Origin: an uncultured Patescibacteria group bacterium
GTDB taxonomy: Bacteria; Patescibacteriota; Microgenomatia; UBA1400; PJMF01
Direction: 5' to 3'
Length of the DNA: 64,000 bases
NCBI GenBank assembly: GCA_905478415.1
Contig: CAJQIG010000002.1
Span: forward strand, 186,699 to 250,698
In this document: positions 24,156-64,000 of the stretch, one piece after another
Numbering within the stretch: position 1 is the stretch's first letter
How the letters are laid out: each line of letters starts with the position of its first letter
Notes under the pieces: generated by a model
The model's database searches: none
What the model was told of the DNA's origin: nothing
Seen by the model: the letters and a program-made list of their open reading frames with translations, nothing else
Program-made: the position numbers and the translations under genes

Positions 24156-24419
24156 TCAGTATTGATCATGGTTTACTAAATCAAAAAAGATGTAAACATC
24201 ATCTTCTTTAATTGCCAATGCTCTCAAATCTCCTTTTATTCGAATAGCATACTGACTAGATCTTTCACCTTTTAATCTATGCAAACGCAACCCCATATGA
24301 TAGGGATTTTCTTTAAATTTTTTAAACTGTTTTCTAAAAATTTTATCCAAAAGAGGATTTTTATTCTTAAACTTTACTACTTTTCTCTTAAATGACTCTG
24401 TATAAACAACTTTTATCAT
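24156..24419 (-). CDS. RelE/ParE-superfamily type II toxin
   Basis: 87 aa. NPYHMGLRLHRLKGERSSQYAIRIKGDLRAL fits the RelE/ParE pattern. 4-bp overlap with the upstream antitoxin. Confidence 0.8.
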   Translation of the reverse strand: MIKVVYTESFKRKVVKFKNKNPLLDKIFRKQFKKFKENPYHMGLRLHRLKGERSSQYAIRIKGDLRALAIKEDDVYIFFDLVNHDQY

Positions 24420-24673
24420 AAAGAGTCAAAAAATTCATCAACATTAATCATTTCGTGGGTTTTTCCCAAACGATGCTCTTCCAAAGCCTTTAAGCCACTT
24501 TCTTCTGTTTTCTTACTCATTTTAAAAGTTGGAACTTCATTTTTCAAAATTTCTTCTGAGGCTTTACTTATAAAAAAACGAATAGTTTTGGGTAAATTAT
24601 ACCCAAATTGAGAACCATAATTTTTTAAAAGGGTAGCTTCTTGAGTTGTAAGAGTTAATTGAACTTTAGTCAT
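24416..24673 (-). CDS. Type II antitoxin (RHH-like)
   Basis: 85 aa. VQLTLTTQEATLLKNYGSQFGYNLPKTIRFFI is a beta-strand plus helices, RHH-like. Translationally coupled to the toxin. Confidence 0.7.
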   Translation of the reverse strand: MTKVQLTLTTQEATLLKNYGSQFGYNLPKTIRFFISKASEEILKNEVPTFKMSKKTEESGLKALEEHRLGKTHEMINVDEFFDSL

Positions 24674-24740
24674 ATGTATTAGTATTATATTATAAAATCA
24701 TTGTTTTGTAAATACTTTAATACTACTTTTGATATTTCTT

Positions 24741-24770
24741 GGGGATTAGTGAAGGATGTTCGAACCTATT
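24741..24770. repeat. Cassette-boundary repeat, copy B
   Basis: GGGGATTAGTGAAGGATGTTCGAACCTATT. It overlaps the stop codon of 24766..25044. Confidence 0.85.
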
Positions 24771-25044
24771 TGTACACCTGATCATGAGTTCCAAAACTAA
24801 AAAAAACAATTTTAGACATGTTTCCATCCTGATTATAGTAATAAAGTAATCGATGGGACATATCTACAGAAATACTCCAACTCTCTCTTTGACCTCCGCT
24901 CAATTTGTGGAGTCGTAATGACGGATGATTTTTGTTCTGTTCGAACAATACTAACTGCTTTTTAATTTTTGTGAATAACTGTGTATCGTTTTTTTTAACT
25001 CTTTGCAATTGCTTCAAACATTTTGGTGAAAACGCAATTTCCAT
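24766..25044 (-). CDS. RelE/ParE-superfamily type II toxin
   Basis: 92 aa. NKNHPSLRLHKLSGGQRESWSISVDMSHRLLY. Paralogous to 24156..24419. Confidence 0.8.
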   Translation of the reverse strand: MEIAFSPKCLKQLQRVKKNDTQLFTKIKKQLVLFEQNKNHPSLRLHKLSGGQRESWSISVDMSHRLLYYYNQDGNMSKIVFFSFGTHDQVYK

Positions 25045-25046
25045 TG

Positions 25047-25307
25047 CTATAGATCCTGGAGCAACTTGCCAACGTCATTAGTTTGGATTAAATCTCCAGT
25101 TTTTTCTGCCTCTACAGCCTCTTTAAGATCGTTAGTTGATTGACTGGACATTTCAAAAACAGGATAGTCAACGTCTTGAACATCATTTATCACTAAATTT
25201 CTGATGTAAGCTGATAAGCTAAGACCGTATTTATTAGCTTTAGTCTGCAAGTAACCTTGCAACTGGACTGGTAATGTAACTCTAATTTGAGTAGTTTGTG
25301 TTTGCAT
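25047..25307 (-). CDS. Type II antitoxin (ribbon-helix-helix)
   Basis: 86 aa. QIRVTLPVQLQGYLQTKANKYGLSLSAYIRNLV is a typical RHH. Ends 2 nt before the toxin start. Confidence 0.75.
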   Translation of the reverse strand: MQTQTTQIRVTLPVQLQGYLQTKANKYGLSLSAYIRNLVINDVQDVDYPVFEMSSQSTNDLKEAVEAEKTGDLIQTNDVGKLLQDL

Positions 25308-26152: not shown

Positions 26153-26806
26153 TCACTTCTTCCTAGCAACCACCACAAAATATTTTAATACTCCAAAATA
26201 GCGAAGTGTTTTTTCTTCAACTACTATATTGCCCGCAGCCTTTATGTAATTTGATAGCTCTTTTTGTTTATACATCACATCATAAGGATGATCTAATATT
26301 ATTCTAAGAAGTTTACCTAGCGGAGATTCAAACGTTTCAATTGAAAAATCCTCCATAATTATCAGTCCCTTAGGTTTTAAAGTTCTCGTTATCTCTTTAA
26401 CTGCTTTCTTCCATTCTGGAATGTGATGAAGAACTCCAAAGTCAAACACTGCATCAAAGGTATTGTCTTTGAACGGCAATTTTGTCGTACTTGCTACTTG
26501 AAAATCAATGTTTTTATTAGAATACTTTCCTTGAGCGATACTAATCATTTTTGAATCAAGGTCAGTAGCAATGATTTTTCTGGGAGAAAAGTGCTTCATG
26601 ATAAGTTGACTACCATATCCACTACCACATCCAATTTCTAATGTCTTATTTATCTTCCCTGGATTAACTAACTTTCTGAGTCGTGGTATCTCCAAAGTAC
26701 TTTGAAACAACCGACGCATTGGGTTATTCATTAGTAGGAATTCAATAGTATTGAGAATCATGAATGTAGTATACCATGTGATTAAAAAGAAACCATTTAT
26801 AGGCAA
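26153..26806 (-). CDS. Class I SAM-dependent methyltransferase (true start probably internal, M16 or M26)
   Basis: LEIGCGSGYGS (motif I), ATDLD (post-I), FDAVFDFGVLHH, LKPKGLIIMED. Confidence 0.85.
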   Translation of the reverse strand: MPINGFFLITWYTTFMILNTIEFLLMNNPMRRLFQSTLEIPRLRKLVNPGKINKTLEIGCGSGYGSQLIMKHFSPRKIIATDLDSKMISIAQGKYSNKNIDFQVASTTKLPFKDNTFDAVFDFGVLHHIPEWKKAVKEITRTLKPKGLIIMEDFSIETFESPLGKLLRIILDHPYDVMYKQKELSNYIKAAGNIVVEEKTLRYFGVLKYFVVVARKK

Positions 26807-26821
26807 ATATTGCTGTTTTGC

Positions 26822-26851
26822 AGGGATTAGTGAACTATGTTGGAACCTATT
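26822..26851. repeat. Cassette-boundary repeat, copy E
   Basis: AGGGATTAGTGAACTATGTTGGAACCTATT. It abuts the stop codon of 26852..27178. Confidence 0.85.
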
Positions 26852-27178
26852 TTACCTTTCTCGTAAAACAAAACTCAATTTAATACTATCGTTTAACTCA
26901 ACTTTTTCTTTGTTTCTAACCTTTACTGGTAATGCAATGAAGTGTGTACCATCACCCATAGGGAGAAATGATGTTTTCCAACTACTGCTACCTACTTTTG
27001 CAGTTATAGCTACCAAACCCCTATCTAAAAGATGTTTAGTCTCATTCGTATATTTTTTAGGAACTCTCACATAATGCCAACCCTTTTTTTGGGGAAATAG
27101 TTCTACTTTTCCAGATATTGCAAATTTTTTCTTGGTTAATAATGGGGTCAAATTAGACATATAAAAAATATAGCCCAA
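26852..27178 (-). CDS. DUF1905-like small protein
   Basis: 108 aa. KKGWHYVRVPKKYTNE...WKTSFLPMGDGTHFIALPVKVR resembles the DUF1905 pattern. Confidence 0.5.
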   Translation of the reverse strand: MGYIFYMSNLTPLLTKKKFAISGKVELFPQKKGWHYVRVPKKYTNETKHLLDRGLVAITAKVGSSSWKTSFLPMGDGTHFIALPVKVRNKEKVELNDSIKLSFVLRER

Positions 27179-27180
27179 AT

Positions 27181-27510
27181 TTACATCTCATGAACAGGAT
27201 AAACACTCACCGTACTACCATCGTTATCCATTATCACTGGATGATCTTTTAATAAAGACTGGGCTGCTTCTAGGCTCTCAGCTTGAACTATTCCATATCC
27301 TGTTACATCATCTTCTTGAAGCTTTGAACCATCAACAGAAGTCACATGTTGAGGCCCAACTGGATTTCCAAAATCAACTACAGCATCAACATGAGTTTCT
27401 TTCCACTTCATCCAAACACCCATAACTCCTTGTACTTCTTCTTCTGACATTGACGCAAATTTTTCCATTGCTTCTTTAGGTGAGTGATAAATTAGAAGAA
27501 ACTTTTTCAT
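27181..27510 (-). CDS. YCII/DGPF-related domain protein
   Basis: 109 aa. The MKKFLLIYHSP... start and overall length/pattern resemble YCII-related proteins. Confidence 0.45.
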   Translation of the reverse strand: MKKFLLIYHSPKEAMEKFASMSEEEVQGVMGVWMKWKETHVDAVVDFGNPVGPQHVTSVDGSKLQEDDVTGYGIVQAESLEAAQSLLKDHPVIMDNDGSTVSVYPVHEM

Positions 27511-27573
27511 AGCGTGATCCTTTACTACATGTTTTTATTCTTTATCTTAACATAATTTAGAACCTAATTTATT

Positions 27574-27604
27574 GGGGATAAGTTAACAAAAAAAGAACTA
27601 TAAA
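27574..27604. repeat. Cassette-boundary repeat, copy F (degenerate), nearest the tRNA-Trp 3' end; an extra half-site lies at 27557-27570
   Basis: GGGGATAAGTTAACAAAAAAAGAACTATAAA compared with the consensus GGGGATTAGTGAAGGATGTTCGAACCTAT. TTAGAACCTAATTT lies just upstream. Confidence 0.5.
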
Positions 27605-27623
27605 TAGCTCTAATTCAAAACTG

Positions 27624-27694
27624 CAGGGCCAGAGGGAATCGAACCCCCGTCAAAGGTTTTGGAGACCTCTATTCTACCGCTGAACTATGGCCCT
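27624..27694 (-). tRNA. tRNA-Trp (anticodon CCA)
   Basis: Minus-strand cloverleaf: acceptor AGGGCCA/TGGCCCT, anticodon stem GAGGT/ACCTT with loop CTCCAAA, T-loop TTCGATT. No encoded CCA. Confidence 0.9.
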
Positions 27695-27808
27695 ACGTTG
27701 AGTTGTTAACGTTCAAATTGTATCATTAAGTGCTAGGTTTGCGGAGTAGAGGATTCGATTTTTTAGGCCTGTATCTTGAGAAATTTGCGGATGTTTGGTT
27801 AGCAACAC

Positions 27809-27837
27809 TTGACATAACATTAGTTATAGGATATAAT
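27809..27837 (+). promoter_or_regulatory. Consensus sigma70-type promoter
   Basis: TTGACA (27809-27814), a 17-nt spacer, then TATAAT (27832-27837). Confidence 0.75.
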
Positions 27838-27843
27838 GAAAAG

Positions 27844-28079
27844 TGTTGTGAGAGCGTACAGCAGACACTTCGTCTGCAACTACCTCGAGCAATACTGAAC
27901 CTTAACAGAATACTTACTTTTGTCTCCTTTAGACAGAAAGGACCGCGTATTTGTTGGAATCACCATAGGGTGAAACAGAGGTGTTACTCGAGAGAGTGGC
28001 GCTTGTGTTTCACTCTATTGTTTTGAGACCAGCGATTTTGTTGGTTTCCTTTTTGTTAATATTTTAAGGAGATAGAAAA
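27844..28079 (+). promoter_or_regulatory. Structured 5' leader of about 236 nt (candidate riboswitch/attenuator) upstream of 28080..28646
   Basis: Hairpins GCAGAC/GTCTGC and TGTCT/AGACA. Long-range CTCGAGCAATAC pairs with GTGTTACTCGAG. GTGAAACA/TGTTTCAC stem followed by TCTATTGTTTT. A strong Shine-Dalgarno (AAGGAG) sits only at the end. Confidence 0.45.
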
Positions 28080-28646
28080 ATGCAGGCATTCACTATTCAA
28101 ACAAATGGCGAAACAAAAAAAGGTATCCGCGTAGAACGTTTTGAAAAAACGGGAGCATATCAGATCAGCGTGCTGAAAGGCCGTCGTCCGGTTTTTGTCC
28201 CAATTTTCAAACGTAATCAGATTGTTGGAGAAGGACCTCTTGGTTACCAAATTTTGGAAGCCGGTATTTGGTCTGATTCTCAGACAGGTCGAGTAAAACT
28301 GCAAAATCCAAAAAATGATGCGTGGGAAGCCAGCCGAAACTTGGTTAGTTTGCGCGTGTATTTTGCCGAAGGAGCAGAGTTAGAAATTGCTCCGCCGGTT
28401 GATTCCGCAAGTTTGCCTCTGGCTGTGGCCTATGACCAGATGCGTAATGGCCGGCAGTATTGCGACCTAGTCGCGGTATTGAAGGCCGGCGAGAAGGTTC
28501 GTTTCATCGAGCACGCCCGTATGGGTGTCAAGGTCGTCAAGACCTTGTTGACCGATGAGAACGGAATCCCGCAACTGGTCGACGGGGATGTCCCCGAACC
28601 AGCGATGATGCAAGCCCTGGCCGAAGTCGCGGCTGCAACCAAGTAA
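28080..28646 (+). CDS. Hypothetical protein
   Basis: 188-aa ORF with AAGGAGA 7 nt upstream of the ATG. A terminator hairpin (AGGCCC...GGGGCCTTTTT) follows. No recognised motifs. Confidence 0.6.
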   Translation: MQAFTIQTNGETKKGIRVERFEKTGAYQISVLKGRRPVFVPIFKRNQIVGEGPLGYQILEAGIWSDSQTGRVKLQNPKNDAWEASRNLVSLRVYFAEGAELEIAPPVDSASLPLAVAYDQMRNGRQYCDLVAVLKAGEKVRFIEHARMGVKVVKTLLTDENGIPQLVDGDVPEPAMMQALAEVAAATK

Positions 28647-28776
28647 GTATCTGAAAAAGGAAAGGCCCTAGTTTTACACTGGGGCCTTTTTGCGTCTCAA
28701 ACCCAATCGCCACCAATCTCAAGTATTTTGTTCAAAACTAGCGTATACTACAGTTGTATCAATCTATATCACTAGT

Positions 28777-29694
28777 ATGCCAAAACCATTAGAACAAGAC
28801 CAAGTAACCAAGTTCACAACTTTGTGGCAAGGTTTCCATATCAAGAAAAATGACTCAGCTCAGGCCGCCGACCAGGCAGCTGAAGCTCTTCATGCTCTCG
28901 ATACAGAAAACTTTACCAACACAGAAGTTGCTACTGCGCATGGAGAACTTTCCAGAATAACTGCGGTCTTAGCTCTGAGTGCAGTCAAAAAAGCTAAAAA
29001 TTGGGAGGAAGCTCGTCAATATTTGCTTCTTTCCCTCGAGACAGTGCAGACAAGCTATCCAGTAGCAAAAACCTATGATCAAGCTAAAATCAGGGGAGAG
29101 TACTGGAATCCGGTGTATGGTGAAAGCTGGGCCCAGTTGAGTGCGCTCATGGATGTTCTCGAGTTGGCAAAAGTACTCGTGGTGCTGTACCCCGAAGCCG
29201 AATCGTTTGCTTATTTTAGAGCGGTTCATGAGGCTTTGTTCACAATCATTGCTGATACAGAGAAAAACCGGGAAATACTGGTTTTGATGATCAAACACGG
29301 TGAGTTTGAGTTGGCTCAAGAGGCATACCAAGAGTACCAGAGCTTGTATGGGCCAGAGTCTAAAGCTTTTAGCCCAGACCAGTGGATTACGTTAACCACC
29401 TTGATGATTGGGCAGTTCTTTGGTCACTCTCAAGTTGCAGAGGCCAGAAAGCTTTCTGGAGAACTTGGGAAGGTCTTGATACACCAGAAGGGAATGTCTT
29501 TTTTTGGGATCAGGGAGTTTTTTAAGAATATGTCACCCTCCAGAGGACAAAGACAGCTGGATTCAAAGTTGATTGGTTGGTACTCGGAAGGTGTCAAAAC
29601 TGATCCCGACGTCAGAAAACAAGTAGAAGCGCTTTTCGACCATGTCTTTGTTGGTGTGGGCGAAGAGGTTCAGTATCTCAATACTAAAGAATAA
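28777..29694 (+). CDS. Hypothetical alpha-helical protein
   Basis: ATG at 28777 (M30 of ORF 28690..29694). Helical-repeat-like composition. No recognised motifs. Confidence 0.5.
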   Translation: MPKPLEQDQVTKFTTLWQGFHIKKNDSAQAADQAAEALHALDTENFTNTEVATAHGELSRITAVLALSAVKKAKNWEEARQYLLLSLETVQTSYPVAKTYDQAKIRGEYWNPVYGESWAQLSALMDVLELAKVLVVLYPEAESFAYFRAVHEALFTIIADTEKNREILVLMIKHGEFELAQEAYQEYQSLYGPESKAFSPDQWITLTTLMIGQFFGHSQVAEARKLSGELGKVLIHQKGMSFFGIREFFKNMSPSRGQRQLDSKLIGWYSEGVKTDPDVRKQVEALFDHVFVGVGEEVQYLNTKE

Positions 29695-29916
29695 GCGAGT
29701 CTTCGTTTTTGTTTCGGTTTTTCAATAAAAGTGATTATTATATCAATTTGAAACCATAAAATACTCAAAATAATTAAAAAACATTTATAAATCAATATAT
29801 TATATTTTTCATAAAAACTGAAAAAGAGTGCTTTATTAATAAAAAAGTTACGTTATCTAACTTCGGAACATCACAATAACAGTGAAAAAAATTGGTTTTT
29901 ATTTGGGTACAAACGA

Positions 29917-30579
29917 CTATTCGTCGAATCCAAGGTTCTTCTGTTCAGCTGCAACAGTAGTTGTTTCTCCGTGCCCAGACAGCAGTTGAGTGTTTCCAGG
30001 GTACTCGAGAAGTTTTTTGAGTGAACGCTCCAGATCAAGGGTGTTTGAGTATGAAAAATCAGTTCGACCGACCCCGTTTTTAAAGATGGTGTCACCACAA
30101 AAAATATGGACATCATCTGGTGCAACCGTGGAGACAAAACTGACACTACCAGGAGTGTGACCTGGTGTTTCGATGGTCGTCAGGGAACAGTTGCCAAAGG
30201 AAAAGGTACTACCTGCCCTGAGGAAGTTGGTTGGTTGGGGCACGGGGTCCGCCTGACGATGTAACCAGTGTTCAGCGCTGTCTTTTGCCCCCTTTATGAG
30301 AAAGAGGTCAGCTTGGTGTAAGAAAATAGGGATATCATCAAAGTTAAGTTTCACTTCTAAGAGGCCGAGGACATGGTCGAAGTGACCATGGGTGAGGAGT
30401 ATGGCGGTGGGTTGAAGTCCAAGACGCAGGATTTCTTCCGAGATGGTATCACCTGCATCAGCGGGGTCGATAATCACTGCCTCGAGTGTGTCTGGGCACC
30501 AGGCTAGGTAGCAATTGGTATCGAGTGCACCAAGGGTGAGAGTAGTTACGGTGGGGTGTTTGAACTTCATGCGGTACAA
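29917..30579 (-). CDS. MBL-fold metallo-hydrolase (GloB-like)
   Basis: LLTHGHFDHV (HxHxDH motif), TPGHTPGS, LLSGHG. Confidence 0.9.
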   Translation of the reverse strand: MYRMKFKHPTVTTLTLGALDTNCYLAWCPDTLEAVIIDPADAGDTISEEILRLGLQPTAILLTHGHFDHVLGLLEVKLNFDDIPIFLHQADLFLIKGAKDSAEHWLHRQADPVPQPTNFLRAGSTFSFGNCSLTTIETPGHTPGSVSFVSTVAPDDVHIFCGDTIFKNGVGRTDFSYSNTLDLERSLKKLLEYPGNTQLLSGHGETTTVAAEQKNLGFDE

Positions 30580-63017: not shown

Positions 63018-63046
63018 TTGACAAAGCCCATAACTAATGTTATTAT
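63018..63046 (+). promoter_or_regulatory. Near-consensus sigma70-type promoter (copy 1 of a duplicated promoter)
   Basis: TTGACA (63018-63023), a 17-nt spacer, then TATTAT (63041-63046). About 80% identical over ~45 nt to the promoter at 63648. Confidence 0.7.
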
Positions 63047-63052
63047 ACTTAT

Positions 63053-63586
63053 GTTGTTGTTTTCAACGCGCTTTTCTAAGTGTGGCTGAGAAAAACACGT
63101 ACATTAACAGACATTAGAAAAAATTCATTGTAAAACGTGAGTTTCCGGATGTCGTTAGAATTGATCAACATTGGTCTGTTCTCACGACTTCCGGAATATC
63201 TCACAAAAATGGGTGAGTGACCGGAATATATGCATCGCGCTGTAGTCGCAGCTGGATCGGTGCATCTTTACCCTCTTTTTAGAGGGCCGTTCGCCGACAA
63301 GGAAGTCGGCAGGGGTTTAGATGGGCAAATGTACCTCTTATACCAATTGCCTAGGTTGGAAGTCATCCTGTGATTAAAAACTTCCACTCTTATTCCATGT
63401 GCCTTTTTAGGCACGTCGCTCAAAGCCTGCCCGGCGAGCGACCACTCGAGGGTAGCAAGCGCAGCTACCCAACACTCAGTCCCCAAAATGGGGCCGGAAG
63501 CAATGGATTAATGACATCGCGCTGGTCATATCTAATGCTTCTGAGGGGTGTGGTTCGACTTTTGTTTCGAACCCACCCCTTTTTTT
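63053..63586 (+). ncRNA. ORF-free, hairpin-rich RNA of about 530 nt and unknown class
   Basis: Bounded by the promoter at 63018 and a 13-bp terminator. Contains at least 10 short perfect hairpins, e.g. GCCGAC/GTCGGC, GTGCCT/AGGCAC, GGGTAGC/GCTACCC, GTCGCTC/GAGCGAC. No convincing ORF or Shine-Dalgarno sequence. Confidence 0.55.
63545..63586 (+). terminator. Strong Rho-independent terminator
   Basis: GGGGTGTGGTTCGA pairs with TCGAACCCACCCC (13 bp with one bulge), followed by T7. A second hairpin, CCTCT/AGAGG with a T-run, follows at 63595-63615. Confidence 0.85.
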
Positions 63587-63647
63587 ATTTTTTCCTCTTT
63601 TATAGAGGATTTTTTGTATCTGAAATGGAGGAGAGTAGTCCCAGATA

Positions 63648-63676
63648 TTGACAAATCCCATAATATTTGTTATAAT
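63648..63676 (+). promoter_or_regulatory. Consensus sigma70-type promoter (copy 2)
   Basis: TTGACA (63648-63653), a 17-nt spacer, then TATAAT (63671-63676). Confidence 0.7.
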
Positions 63677-63682
63677 AATTGA

Positions 63683-64000
63683 TATTGTTGGGACGTTTGT
63701 TCCAACTGCACATTTACTACTTTGGCCAATCTTCAGTGAGCGGCCAATTTGGATCATGTACAACTCTAAGTACGTGGTCCATATTGGCTGTTTGCTGGAC
63801 TATGGGGATTAGCATCCCACCATAGATTCAGAGCCCACAAGCACCACCACCCCAATCTCGAAAGTGGGTGGTAAACACTTCGTCTCTAGCTCCAGAGTGA
63901 GTTTTAGAGATAGGGCAACGATCCATTCTTAGTACTTTCACCTGAAAAGATCAGGGCAACAGGCACGTTGCATAAGTACTAATGGCCGGCAAGGTAGTGC
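63683..64000 (+). ncRNA. Structured untranslated transcript running to the window edge (stable-RNA gene or rRNA leader; identity unresolved)
   Basis: No plus-strand ORF of 60 aa or more. Hairpins CTATGGGGAT/ATCCCACCATAG, ACCACCC/GGGTGGT and TTGGGA/TTCCAA. Driven by a consensus promoter. Confidence 0.4.

Follow-up and report, generated by a model that had tools for sequence, protein, structure and literature searches.

The 64,000-nucleotide stretch of a Patescibacteria contig analysed here (CAJQIG010000002.1; hereafter the window) contains a small cassette, in which a consensus promoter is followed by a structured RNA leader of ~235 nt, a Shine-Dalgarno (SD) sequence, an open reading frame (ORF) encoding a 188-residue orphan protein, and a terminator, with the leader inherited together with the ORF. 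That the leader is a real RNA element is well supported. It is a new motif, absent from Rfam 15, and of a known general kind, i.e. a structured regulatory mRNA leader. A cis-regulatory role in general is rather probable. More specifically, we propose that the leader is a cis-acting folding switch with a macromolecular effector, either the encoded protein binding autogenously or RNA processing, and we put the probability of this at roughly 0.35. We think a metabolite effector is less likely than a macromolecular one, because RNA and protein always occur together and the gene gives no hint of a metabolite.

Organisation and conservation of the cassette

The promoter is directly apparent in the sequence (Table 1), and all other promoter sites on the + strand of 26500-30500 score ≤9/12. 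From the predicted transcription start to the ATG at 28080 there are ~236 nt free of ORFs. Both features had been put forward in an earlier reading of the sequence alone (the original prediction), as a TTGACA-17-TATAAT promoter at 27809-27837 and a ~236-nt ORF-free stretch with a terminal AAGGAG, and both are borne out, the promoter at all 12 consensus positions and the leader on inspection of the sequence. A tRNA-Trp(CCA) gene (27623-27694) lies in divergent orientation, 115 nt from the promoter. The sole ATG of the leader region falls within the -10 hexamer and so precedes the predicted start, and a leader-peptide attenuator is rejected on this ground; by reading, the frames that this ATG opens in the window and in a second locus, L001, are unlike in both length and sequence. 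A promoter scan found no antisense promoter within the leader.

The cassette is present in three lineages. Lineage W is that of the window, to which loci L009-L018 are identical over a 388-nt query (27695-28082; 369 nt for L012); lineage A comprises loci L001-L008 and lineage B loci L041-L043. A word-indexed search of 5.8 billion clusters identified P0002 as a full-length relative of the 188-aa protein (48% identity), and one more, P0008 (~30% identity), came from an exhaustive HMMER search of 1.84 billion representatives. Gene order in A is that of W, i.e. tRNA-Trp, the cassette, a gene for a 305-aa protein, one for a protein with a metallo-beta-lactamase fold, rpmB, fmt and def. Each of the three lineages has a perfect TTGACA-17-TATAAT promoter (L041 47-75, scored 12/12; L001 145-173, by reading) with a spacer that ends in TTATAGG before the -10 hexamer, a leader of 234-236 nt, and AAGGAG 6-8 nt ahead of the start codon.

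The window leader has a minimum free energy (MFE) of -96 kcal/mol, compared with -55.6 ± 4.7 kcal/mol for dinucleotide shuffles (z -8.6; 0/200 shuffles as good), and the leaders of A and B give z values of -5.4 and -9.5. The reverse complement reaches just -53.9 kcal/mol (z -2.2), and because it folds so poorly the structure is dependent on G-U pairs and belongs to the RNA and to the + strand; the poor folding of the reverse strand also rejects a palindrome acting at the DNA level or a miniature inverted-repeat transposable element.

Helix positions agree within ~6 nt across the lineages, at a position-by-position sequence identity of just 33-36%. Alignment with MAFFT and RNAalifold misaligned the variable stems of the three leaders and was uninformative; the leaders were instead folded singly and aligned by hand helix by helix, and pairs were counted with our own script. 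Pairing is canonical in 184 of the 186 pair cells of this structural alignment, and 47 of its 68 pairs are changed on both sides, a count that overstates independent covariation because each leader was aligned according to the fold predicted for it. A comparison of pairing-probability profiles is independent of the alignment: the in-register similarities (0.77 for W-A, 0.68 for W-B and 0.74 for A-B; z 3.9-4.8) exceed those of all 222 cyclic shifts for each pair of leaders. Conservation of sequence is limited to ~30 nt in the 5' strand of helix P1 and the adjacent linker. The original prediction had tied its reading to structure conserved upstream of homologues of the ORF, and this is what the comparison found. 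Since both other lineages have the promoter and a leader of equal length, with the same helices in the same order, a functional structured leader is well supported. A structure formed by chance in a functionless intergenic spacer is very improbable: only three lineages are known and thermodynamic predictions alone can mislead, but the extreme z values recur in three diverged leaders, together with the strand asymmetry, the in-register architecture and the conserved sequence blocks and promoter.

Among the lineage-A contigs we saw a single leader polymorphism, a G-to-T change 136 nt upstream of the ATG in L007. It lies at pair C87-G104 of P3, which it would break, and as it occurs in one contig it may be an assembly error.

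The promoter, leader and 188-aa ORF form a monocistronic unit. A strong intrinsic terminator follows the ORF (Table 1), and equivalent terminators follow it in L001 and L041. The original prediction had the leader controlling a gene pair that included the 305-aa gene (28777-29694), and this part is not upheld. The 305-aa gene is likewise known from only three lineages, and in the third of these (L019, 60% identity) it adjoins tRNA-Trp with neither the leader nor the 188-aa gene; the intervening terminator and the L019 arrangement place it outside the unit. As L019 misses both, the leader and the 188-aa ORF are present or absent together. Neither the 188-aa nor the 305-aa product matches a Pfam family.

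Table 1. Coordinates of the cassette features within the window
Feature	Coordinates	Strand	Description and basis
Sigma-70 type promoter	27809-27837	+	TTGACA 27809-27814, 17-nt spacer, TATAAT 27832-27837; 12/12 match; predicted transcription start ~27843/27844
5' domain	27844-27894	+	P1 UGUUGUG 27844-27850 / AGCAAUA 27888-27894, enclosing variable hairpin 27852-27886; MFE in all three lineages
Conserved linker	27895-27917	+	CUGAACCUUAACAGAAUACUUAC; most conserved sequence block of the RNA
P3	27918-27938	+	8-bp hairpin UUUUGUCU-CCUUU-AGACAGAA; same position in all three lineages
J3/4 linker	27939-27963	+	Contains UUGUUGG 27951-27957; near copy of P5 3' strand
P4	27964-28020	+	Long hairpin, 12-14 bp, 1x1 mismatch, 11 bp, GAGA loop, ~25 bp total; MFE
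P5	28025-28057	+	10-bp terminator-like hairpin 28025-28048, -12.1 kcal/mol, then CUUUUUGUU; terminator scan and folded alone
SD sequence and start codon	28066-28082	+	AAGGAG 28066-28071, ATG 28080-28082; read from sequence
188-aa orphan ORF	28080-28646	+	Full-length homologues in only two other lineages
Intrinsic terminator closing the cassette	28659-28693	+	-22.4 kcal/mol hairpin with A-tract and U-tract, 13 nt past the stop codon

Helices of the leader and their possible alternative pairings

Helix P1 begins where the transcript is predicted to start (within 0-2 nt). Its 5' strand is conserved (UGUUGUG, UGUUGUG and UGUUAUU in the three lineages), and its pairs change from G-C to A-U and from G-C to U-A. 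The hairpin that it encloses varies in sequence and keeps its pairing in all three lineages. The linker that follows has the consensus YUGAWCYUUAACARAGU... and is identical to L001 at 22/24 nt and to L041 at 17/23; its sequence is unique within the window, even at 3 mismatches. It may form a 3-bp hairpin (YUG/CAR), the first pair of which changes from C-G to U-A among the lineages, or may pair through CCUUAA or UUAAC with UUAAGG (28064-28069) or GUUAA (28055-28059) in the 3' tail. When such linker-tail pairing is forced, the fold is the MFE itself in L041, lies 1.9 kcal/mol above it in L001 (-82.2 vs -84.1 kcal/mol), and lies 8.6-11.1 kcal/mol above it in the window (-91.4 and -88.9 vs -100 kcal/mol).

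P3 is altered on both sides at 7 of its 8 pairs in the three-lineage alignment, and its pyrimidine-rich 5' strand and loop include CUCCUU (27924-27929), an anti-SD sequence. The P4 design (11-12 bp, a 1x1 mismatch, 11-12 bp) is common to the three lineages at the same distance from the start; of its 24 aligned pairs, 21 show changes in both strands, and a single one is broken, in one lineage. P5 ranges from 8 to 10 bp. It is followed by a U-tract in W and in L001, and in L041 it is formed by GGCCCGAC/GUCGGGUC with a tail, GUUAAGAAUC, that is not a U-tract; the hairpin is thus a conserved feature, and termination is not.

Several of these helices had been named in the original prediction. GCAGAC/GTCTGC (27861-27866/27872-27877, in the hairpin enclosed by P1) and TGTCT/AGACA (27921-27925/27931-27935, part of P3) both occur in the predicted folds. 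A long-range pairing of CTCGAGCAATAC with GTGTTACTCGAG is not upheld as described: the complementarity exists (75% over 20 nt), but it is unused in the MFE fold, where the bases are engaged in P1 and P4, and by inspection, without a dedicated test, no counterpart is seen in the two homologous leaders. The leader does have a terminator-like stem and U-rich tract as claimed, although these correspond to 28025-28048 and CTTTTTGTT; the stem named for it, GTGAAACA/TGTTTCAC, is the middle of the P4 hairpin.

The leader has a second set of possible pairings. In W and A the MFE fold is a rod of ~160 nt in which the CUCCUU of P3 pairs with the SD sequence, the 3' strand of P3 pairs with the U-tract after P5, and UUGUUGG (27951-27957) pairs with CCAGCGA (28029-28035). 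The probability of the SD:anti-SD pairing is at least 0.95 in the equilibrium ensembles of the window and L001, in which the flanking sequences differ, and the probability that the SD is unpaired is ~0 in both. In W the J3/4 linker and the 3' strand of P5 also form a direct repeat, GCGTATTTGTTGG/GCGATTTTGTTGG. Pairing of J3/4 with the 5' strand of P5 gives an anti-P5 helix that extends P4 and is the MFE of the nascent transcript (i.e. RNA ending before the 3' strand of P5) in all three lineages. Once P5 is able to form, the energies with anti-P5 and with P5 are -87.6 vs -85.0 kcal/mol in W and -75.5 vs -76.5 kcal/mol in A. With J3/4 shuffled, as many pairs as in the native sequence are reached in 79/500 trials for W, in 46/500 for A and in 3/500 for B. 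An attenuator-like alternation between anti-P5 and P5 is thus no more than suggestive.

From these pairings we infer a switch, and the direction of switching and the effector are put forward in the same conditional sense. In the compact form P3 and P5 would both be formed, and P5 with its U-tract would be terminator-like in the window and L001. In the rod form J3/4 would occupy the 5' strand of P5, the 3' strand of P3 would lie on the U-tract, and the freed CUCCUU would lie on the SD. The balance between compact and rod forms would then set the output of protein from a maximally strong promoter, and the candidate effectors are the cassette's own protein in autogenous feedback, or RNA processing.

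A number of observations weigh against this switch. Lineage B departs from the scheme in three respects: P5 of L041 has no U-tract, a local hairpin masks the SD no more than partly, and P5 is ahead of anti-P5 by 5.5 kcal/mol (-74.0 vs -68.5 kcal/mol). Neither in the window nor in L001 is the anti-P5 pairing individually significant. SD masking alone is not exceptional, since in a crude control of 24 other gene starts in the window (median probability of an unpaired SD 0.34) 4 of the 24 were equally masked (<0.02). Both predicted folds appear to be "off" states in W and A, through termination or a masked SD, and because both look repressive the direction of the switch is not deducible from the sequence. 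With only three independent sequences, covariation is beyond statistical test. Finally, the modelled fold of the 188-aa protein, described below, is uninformative on RNA binding.

Some of the same features would also suit a passive 5' untranslated region (UTR) for high expression, in which P1 would block 5'-end-dependent decay and P4 would be an RNase III site, with no conditional switch; we regard this as unlikely. The perfect promoter is retained in all three lineages, as is the ~25-bp near-perfect duplex of P4, P1 is 0-2 nt from the predicted 5' end, and another strongly promoted transcript in the window opens with a 5' hairpin containing UGUUGU. Stabilising and RNase III-processed leaders are found in ompA, Bacillus subtilis aprE, the phage T7 early mRNAs and Escherichia coli adhE, and the leader is like them in its hairpin at the extreme 5' end, its long duplex suited to RNase III and its very strong promoter. 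However, a simple stabiliser has no use for a 23-nt conserved single-stranded block, five ordered helices and alternative pairings, the first and last of which are foreign to this class, and complete burial of the SD, as in the window and L001, would not be expected of a design for high expression.

Relation to known RNA and RNA–protein systems

Covariance-model searches with Rfam 15 at gathering score identified four tRNAs in the whole window and nothing for the leader. At E<=10, the region 27700-28150 gave chance matches only, i.e. to miRNA and snoRNA models and to freshwater-2, which scored 18.9 bits against a threshold of 49.9 and ran through the SD. A check by eye in the original prediction had likewise matched no riboswitch consensus, and the 4227 Rfam families bear this out. 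A T-box leader is rejected, as RF00230 gives no match at E<=10 and no T-box consensus is seen on reading the leader. An RNA thermometer (ROSE, fourU) is also rejected: there is no Rfam match, and the SD-masking rod of ~160 nt (-96 to -100 kcal/mol) is far too stable for melting. Retrons are rejected because neither the 188-aa nor the 305-aa ORF matches Pfam RVT and the cassette is closed by a terminator. In the literature on structured RNAs in bacteria of the candidate phyla we found nothing relevant.

A new class of metabolite- or ion-sensing riboswitch, with P1, the linker and P3 as aptamer and with anti-P5/P5 and SD masking as expression platform, is unlikely. As in riboswitches and attenuators, the structured leader is promoter-proximal, lies in the 5' UTR and is conserved before homologous genes in the three known lineages of the ORF; its stems appear to covary and a junction sequence is conserved. 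Mutually exclusive helices are possible in all three lineages, including a terminator-like hairpin, with a U-tract in two of them, that could be replaced by a helix from an upstream copy of its 3' strand, and an anti-SD able to pair with the SD. The absence of a match to a known family would make it a new class. Unlike riboswitches, however, the leader has only ~30 conserved nt, with no aptamer-like core evident and no multi-stem junction conserved in sequence. It was found in just three lineages, in each of them before the gene for this one orphan protein, which bears no signature of an enzyme or a transporter, there is no second copy in the window, and the terminator is not kept in L041, where the U-tract is missing. 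Of the riboswitch or attenuator originally predicted, a conserved structured leader therefore stands and the attenuator-like pairing is suggestive; a small-molecule ligand finds no support, because there is no known aptamer, conservation extends over just ~30 nt, and the leader precedes one orphan protein instead of metabolic or transport genes.

The 188-aa protein has no match in Pfam, PADLOC, PHROGs, NCBIfam or the sequences of the PDB. An AlphaFold2 (AF2) model is all-beta with a C-terminal helix (pLDDT 55), and its structure matches are to generic Ig-like folds only. The two halves of the protein differ in charge in each of the three lineages, the N-terminal one being basic (isoelectric point, pI, ~10) and the C-terminal one acidic (pI ~5), and to judge from its sequence the basic half would be compatible with RNA binding. 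Autogenous leaders bound by the product of their own mRNA include those of the ribosomal proteins L10 and S15 and of phage T4 gene 32 and regA. The cassette is like these in that leader and gene are one inherited unit, structure extends over the ribosome-binding site, and the protein has a strongly basic domain. It is unlike them in that most operators of this kind are far shorter and less stable than the present leader, and RNA binding here is putative.

The 3' half of the 188-aa ORF (28350-28649) has a G+C content of 56%, compared with 41.8% for the window and ~33% just upstream. The ORF of L041 also looks richer in G+C than its flanks, as judged by eye. The raised G+C may reflect amino-acid composition or a foreign origin.

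Alternatively, the promoter could produce a separate small RNA of ~215 nt that ends at P5 and its U-tract, with the ORF expressed only by read-through and the two forming an RNA–protein module like a type III toxin–antitoxin (TA) or defence pair; this too we consider unlikely. In its favour, the layout of a strong promoter, a structured non-coding RNA, a terminator-like hairpin, an ORF of ~190 aa and a terminator resembles that of ToxIN, CptIN and TenpIN, with their ORFs of ~170-200 aa and patchy distribution. RNA and ORF are gained or lost together and are sporadic and very narrowly distributed, the N-terminal domain is basic, and the region is variable, with two RelE/YafQ-like modules nearby (sub-threshold Pfam matches) and an integrase at the same tRNA in a relative. 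Type III TA systems proper are nevertheless rejected, as the RNA has no tandem repeats and the protein matches no type III toxin family. Tandem Repeats Finder (27700-28700, score >=30) found no array of direct repeats such as the ~34-45 nt repeats of type III antitoxins, the repeats of the leader being short, scattered and two-copy only, and there is no match to the ToxN/AbiQ, CptN or TenpN toxins in Pfam at E<=0.1 or in PADLOC at E<=1. The terminator is moreover not conserved, P5 in L041 being without a U-tract, and the SD follows directly after the structure and is paired with it, which fits a role in cis. It is similarly unlikely that the small sporadic unit beside the tRNA gene is an undescribed two-component RNA–protein system, in which a non-repetitive RNA neutralises or guides its partner (an RNA antitoxin or a defence system), or a new riboswitch class for a beta-sandwich protein.

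Type I toxin mRNAs that are inhibited by folding back on themselves (hok/sok, zorO, tisB) offer a further comparison. They share with the leader a long and very stable 5' structure and long-range masking of the SD, and as in these systems the full-length mRNA may be translationally inert until processed. They differ in that the ORF here encodes a soluble, beta-rich protein of 188 aa rather than a small membrane peptide, and no antisense promoter was found.

Further copies of the leader were sought by several routes. No second copy of the linker element is present in the window. A scan of genome contigs for CCTTAACAGANTACTTAC gave 17 matches, all by chance and with the flanking motif missing, and the same pattern gave 3 chance matches in viral contigs. 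Also in viral contigs, a degenerate linker pattern had no match, the promoter pattern with a 17-nt spacer returned 53 unrelated promoters, and a protein-based scan returned nothing; blastn searches against phages and plasmids were likewise negative.

Neighbouring features and significance

A serine recombinase of 577 aa (Resolvase and Recombinase domains) is encoded in lineage A on contig L002 (211-1944), abutting the 3' end of tRNA-Trp. This position corresponds to that just left of 27623 in the window, and L003 carries other genes there, which suggests that an element has integrated at tRNA-Trp and that the neighbourhood is variable. The window itself contains two tandem pairs of small overlapping ORFs at 24156-25307 on the - strand (87 + 85 aa and 92 + 86 aa), with sub-threshold matches to YafQ/ParE/HigB-like toxins and with one partner similar to the ribbon-helix-helix protein NikA. 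These are probably two type II TA modules.

Two further transcripts with strong promoters are predicted near the right end of the window. At 63018-63592 (+), an 11/12 promoter (TTGACA-17-TATTAT, at 63018) is followed by ~540 nt almost free of ORFs (-211.8 kcal/mol, z -9.4) and closed by a strong terminator hairpin at ~63545-63590. Rfam gives no match to it, whether at gathering score or at E<=1, and it is a candidate for a large unannotated non-coding RNA. At 63648-64000 (+), extending past the window end, a 12/12 promoter at 63648 precedes a stretch of at least 320 nt in which the + strand has no long ORF. Its only Rfam match is a chance one to a miRNA model, well under gathering score, and it may be a further non-coding RNA or a long leader.

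Of the five strongest promoters in the window, four have a UGUUGU-like transcript start within ~15 nt of the -10 hexamer, at 27844, 63052 and 63685 (+) and at ~4690 (-), with the sequences GTGTTGTG, ATGTTGTTGTTTTCAAC, ATTGTTGGGAC and GATGTTGTTTCAAC. These may represent a common 5'-end hairpin or signal, or a coincidence in AT-rich DNA. Perfect TTGACA/TATAAT promoters with TTATAGGN at the end of the spacer are far commoner than we would expect by chance: there are 83 with an 18-nt spacer in metagenomes (L044-L126; unrelated, many phage-like) and 53 with a 17-nt spacer in IMG/VR viral contigs (L127-L179; unrelated). They include a recurrent freshwater family with TTGACAcaATAGGAGATTATAGGATATAAT followed by hairpin leaders ending in ...CACTAACGAAGGAGAAAGAAA.

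The very narrow distribution of the cassette (three lineages) limits its general impact unless more members are found by covariance-model search. If the switch is real, it represents a cis-regulatory RNA motif that is new and comes from uncultivated bacteria of which few have been sampled. Its modular anatomy is unusually clear: a cap hairpin at the 5' end leads through the conserved linker to the hairpin with the anti-SD, and from there to the long duplex and the terminator-like hairpin. The protein family to which the motif is tied has no known relatives. The switch would then provide a handle on the function of the orphan protein and a compact test case for the damping of a maximally strong promoter after initiation.

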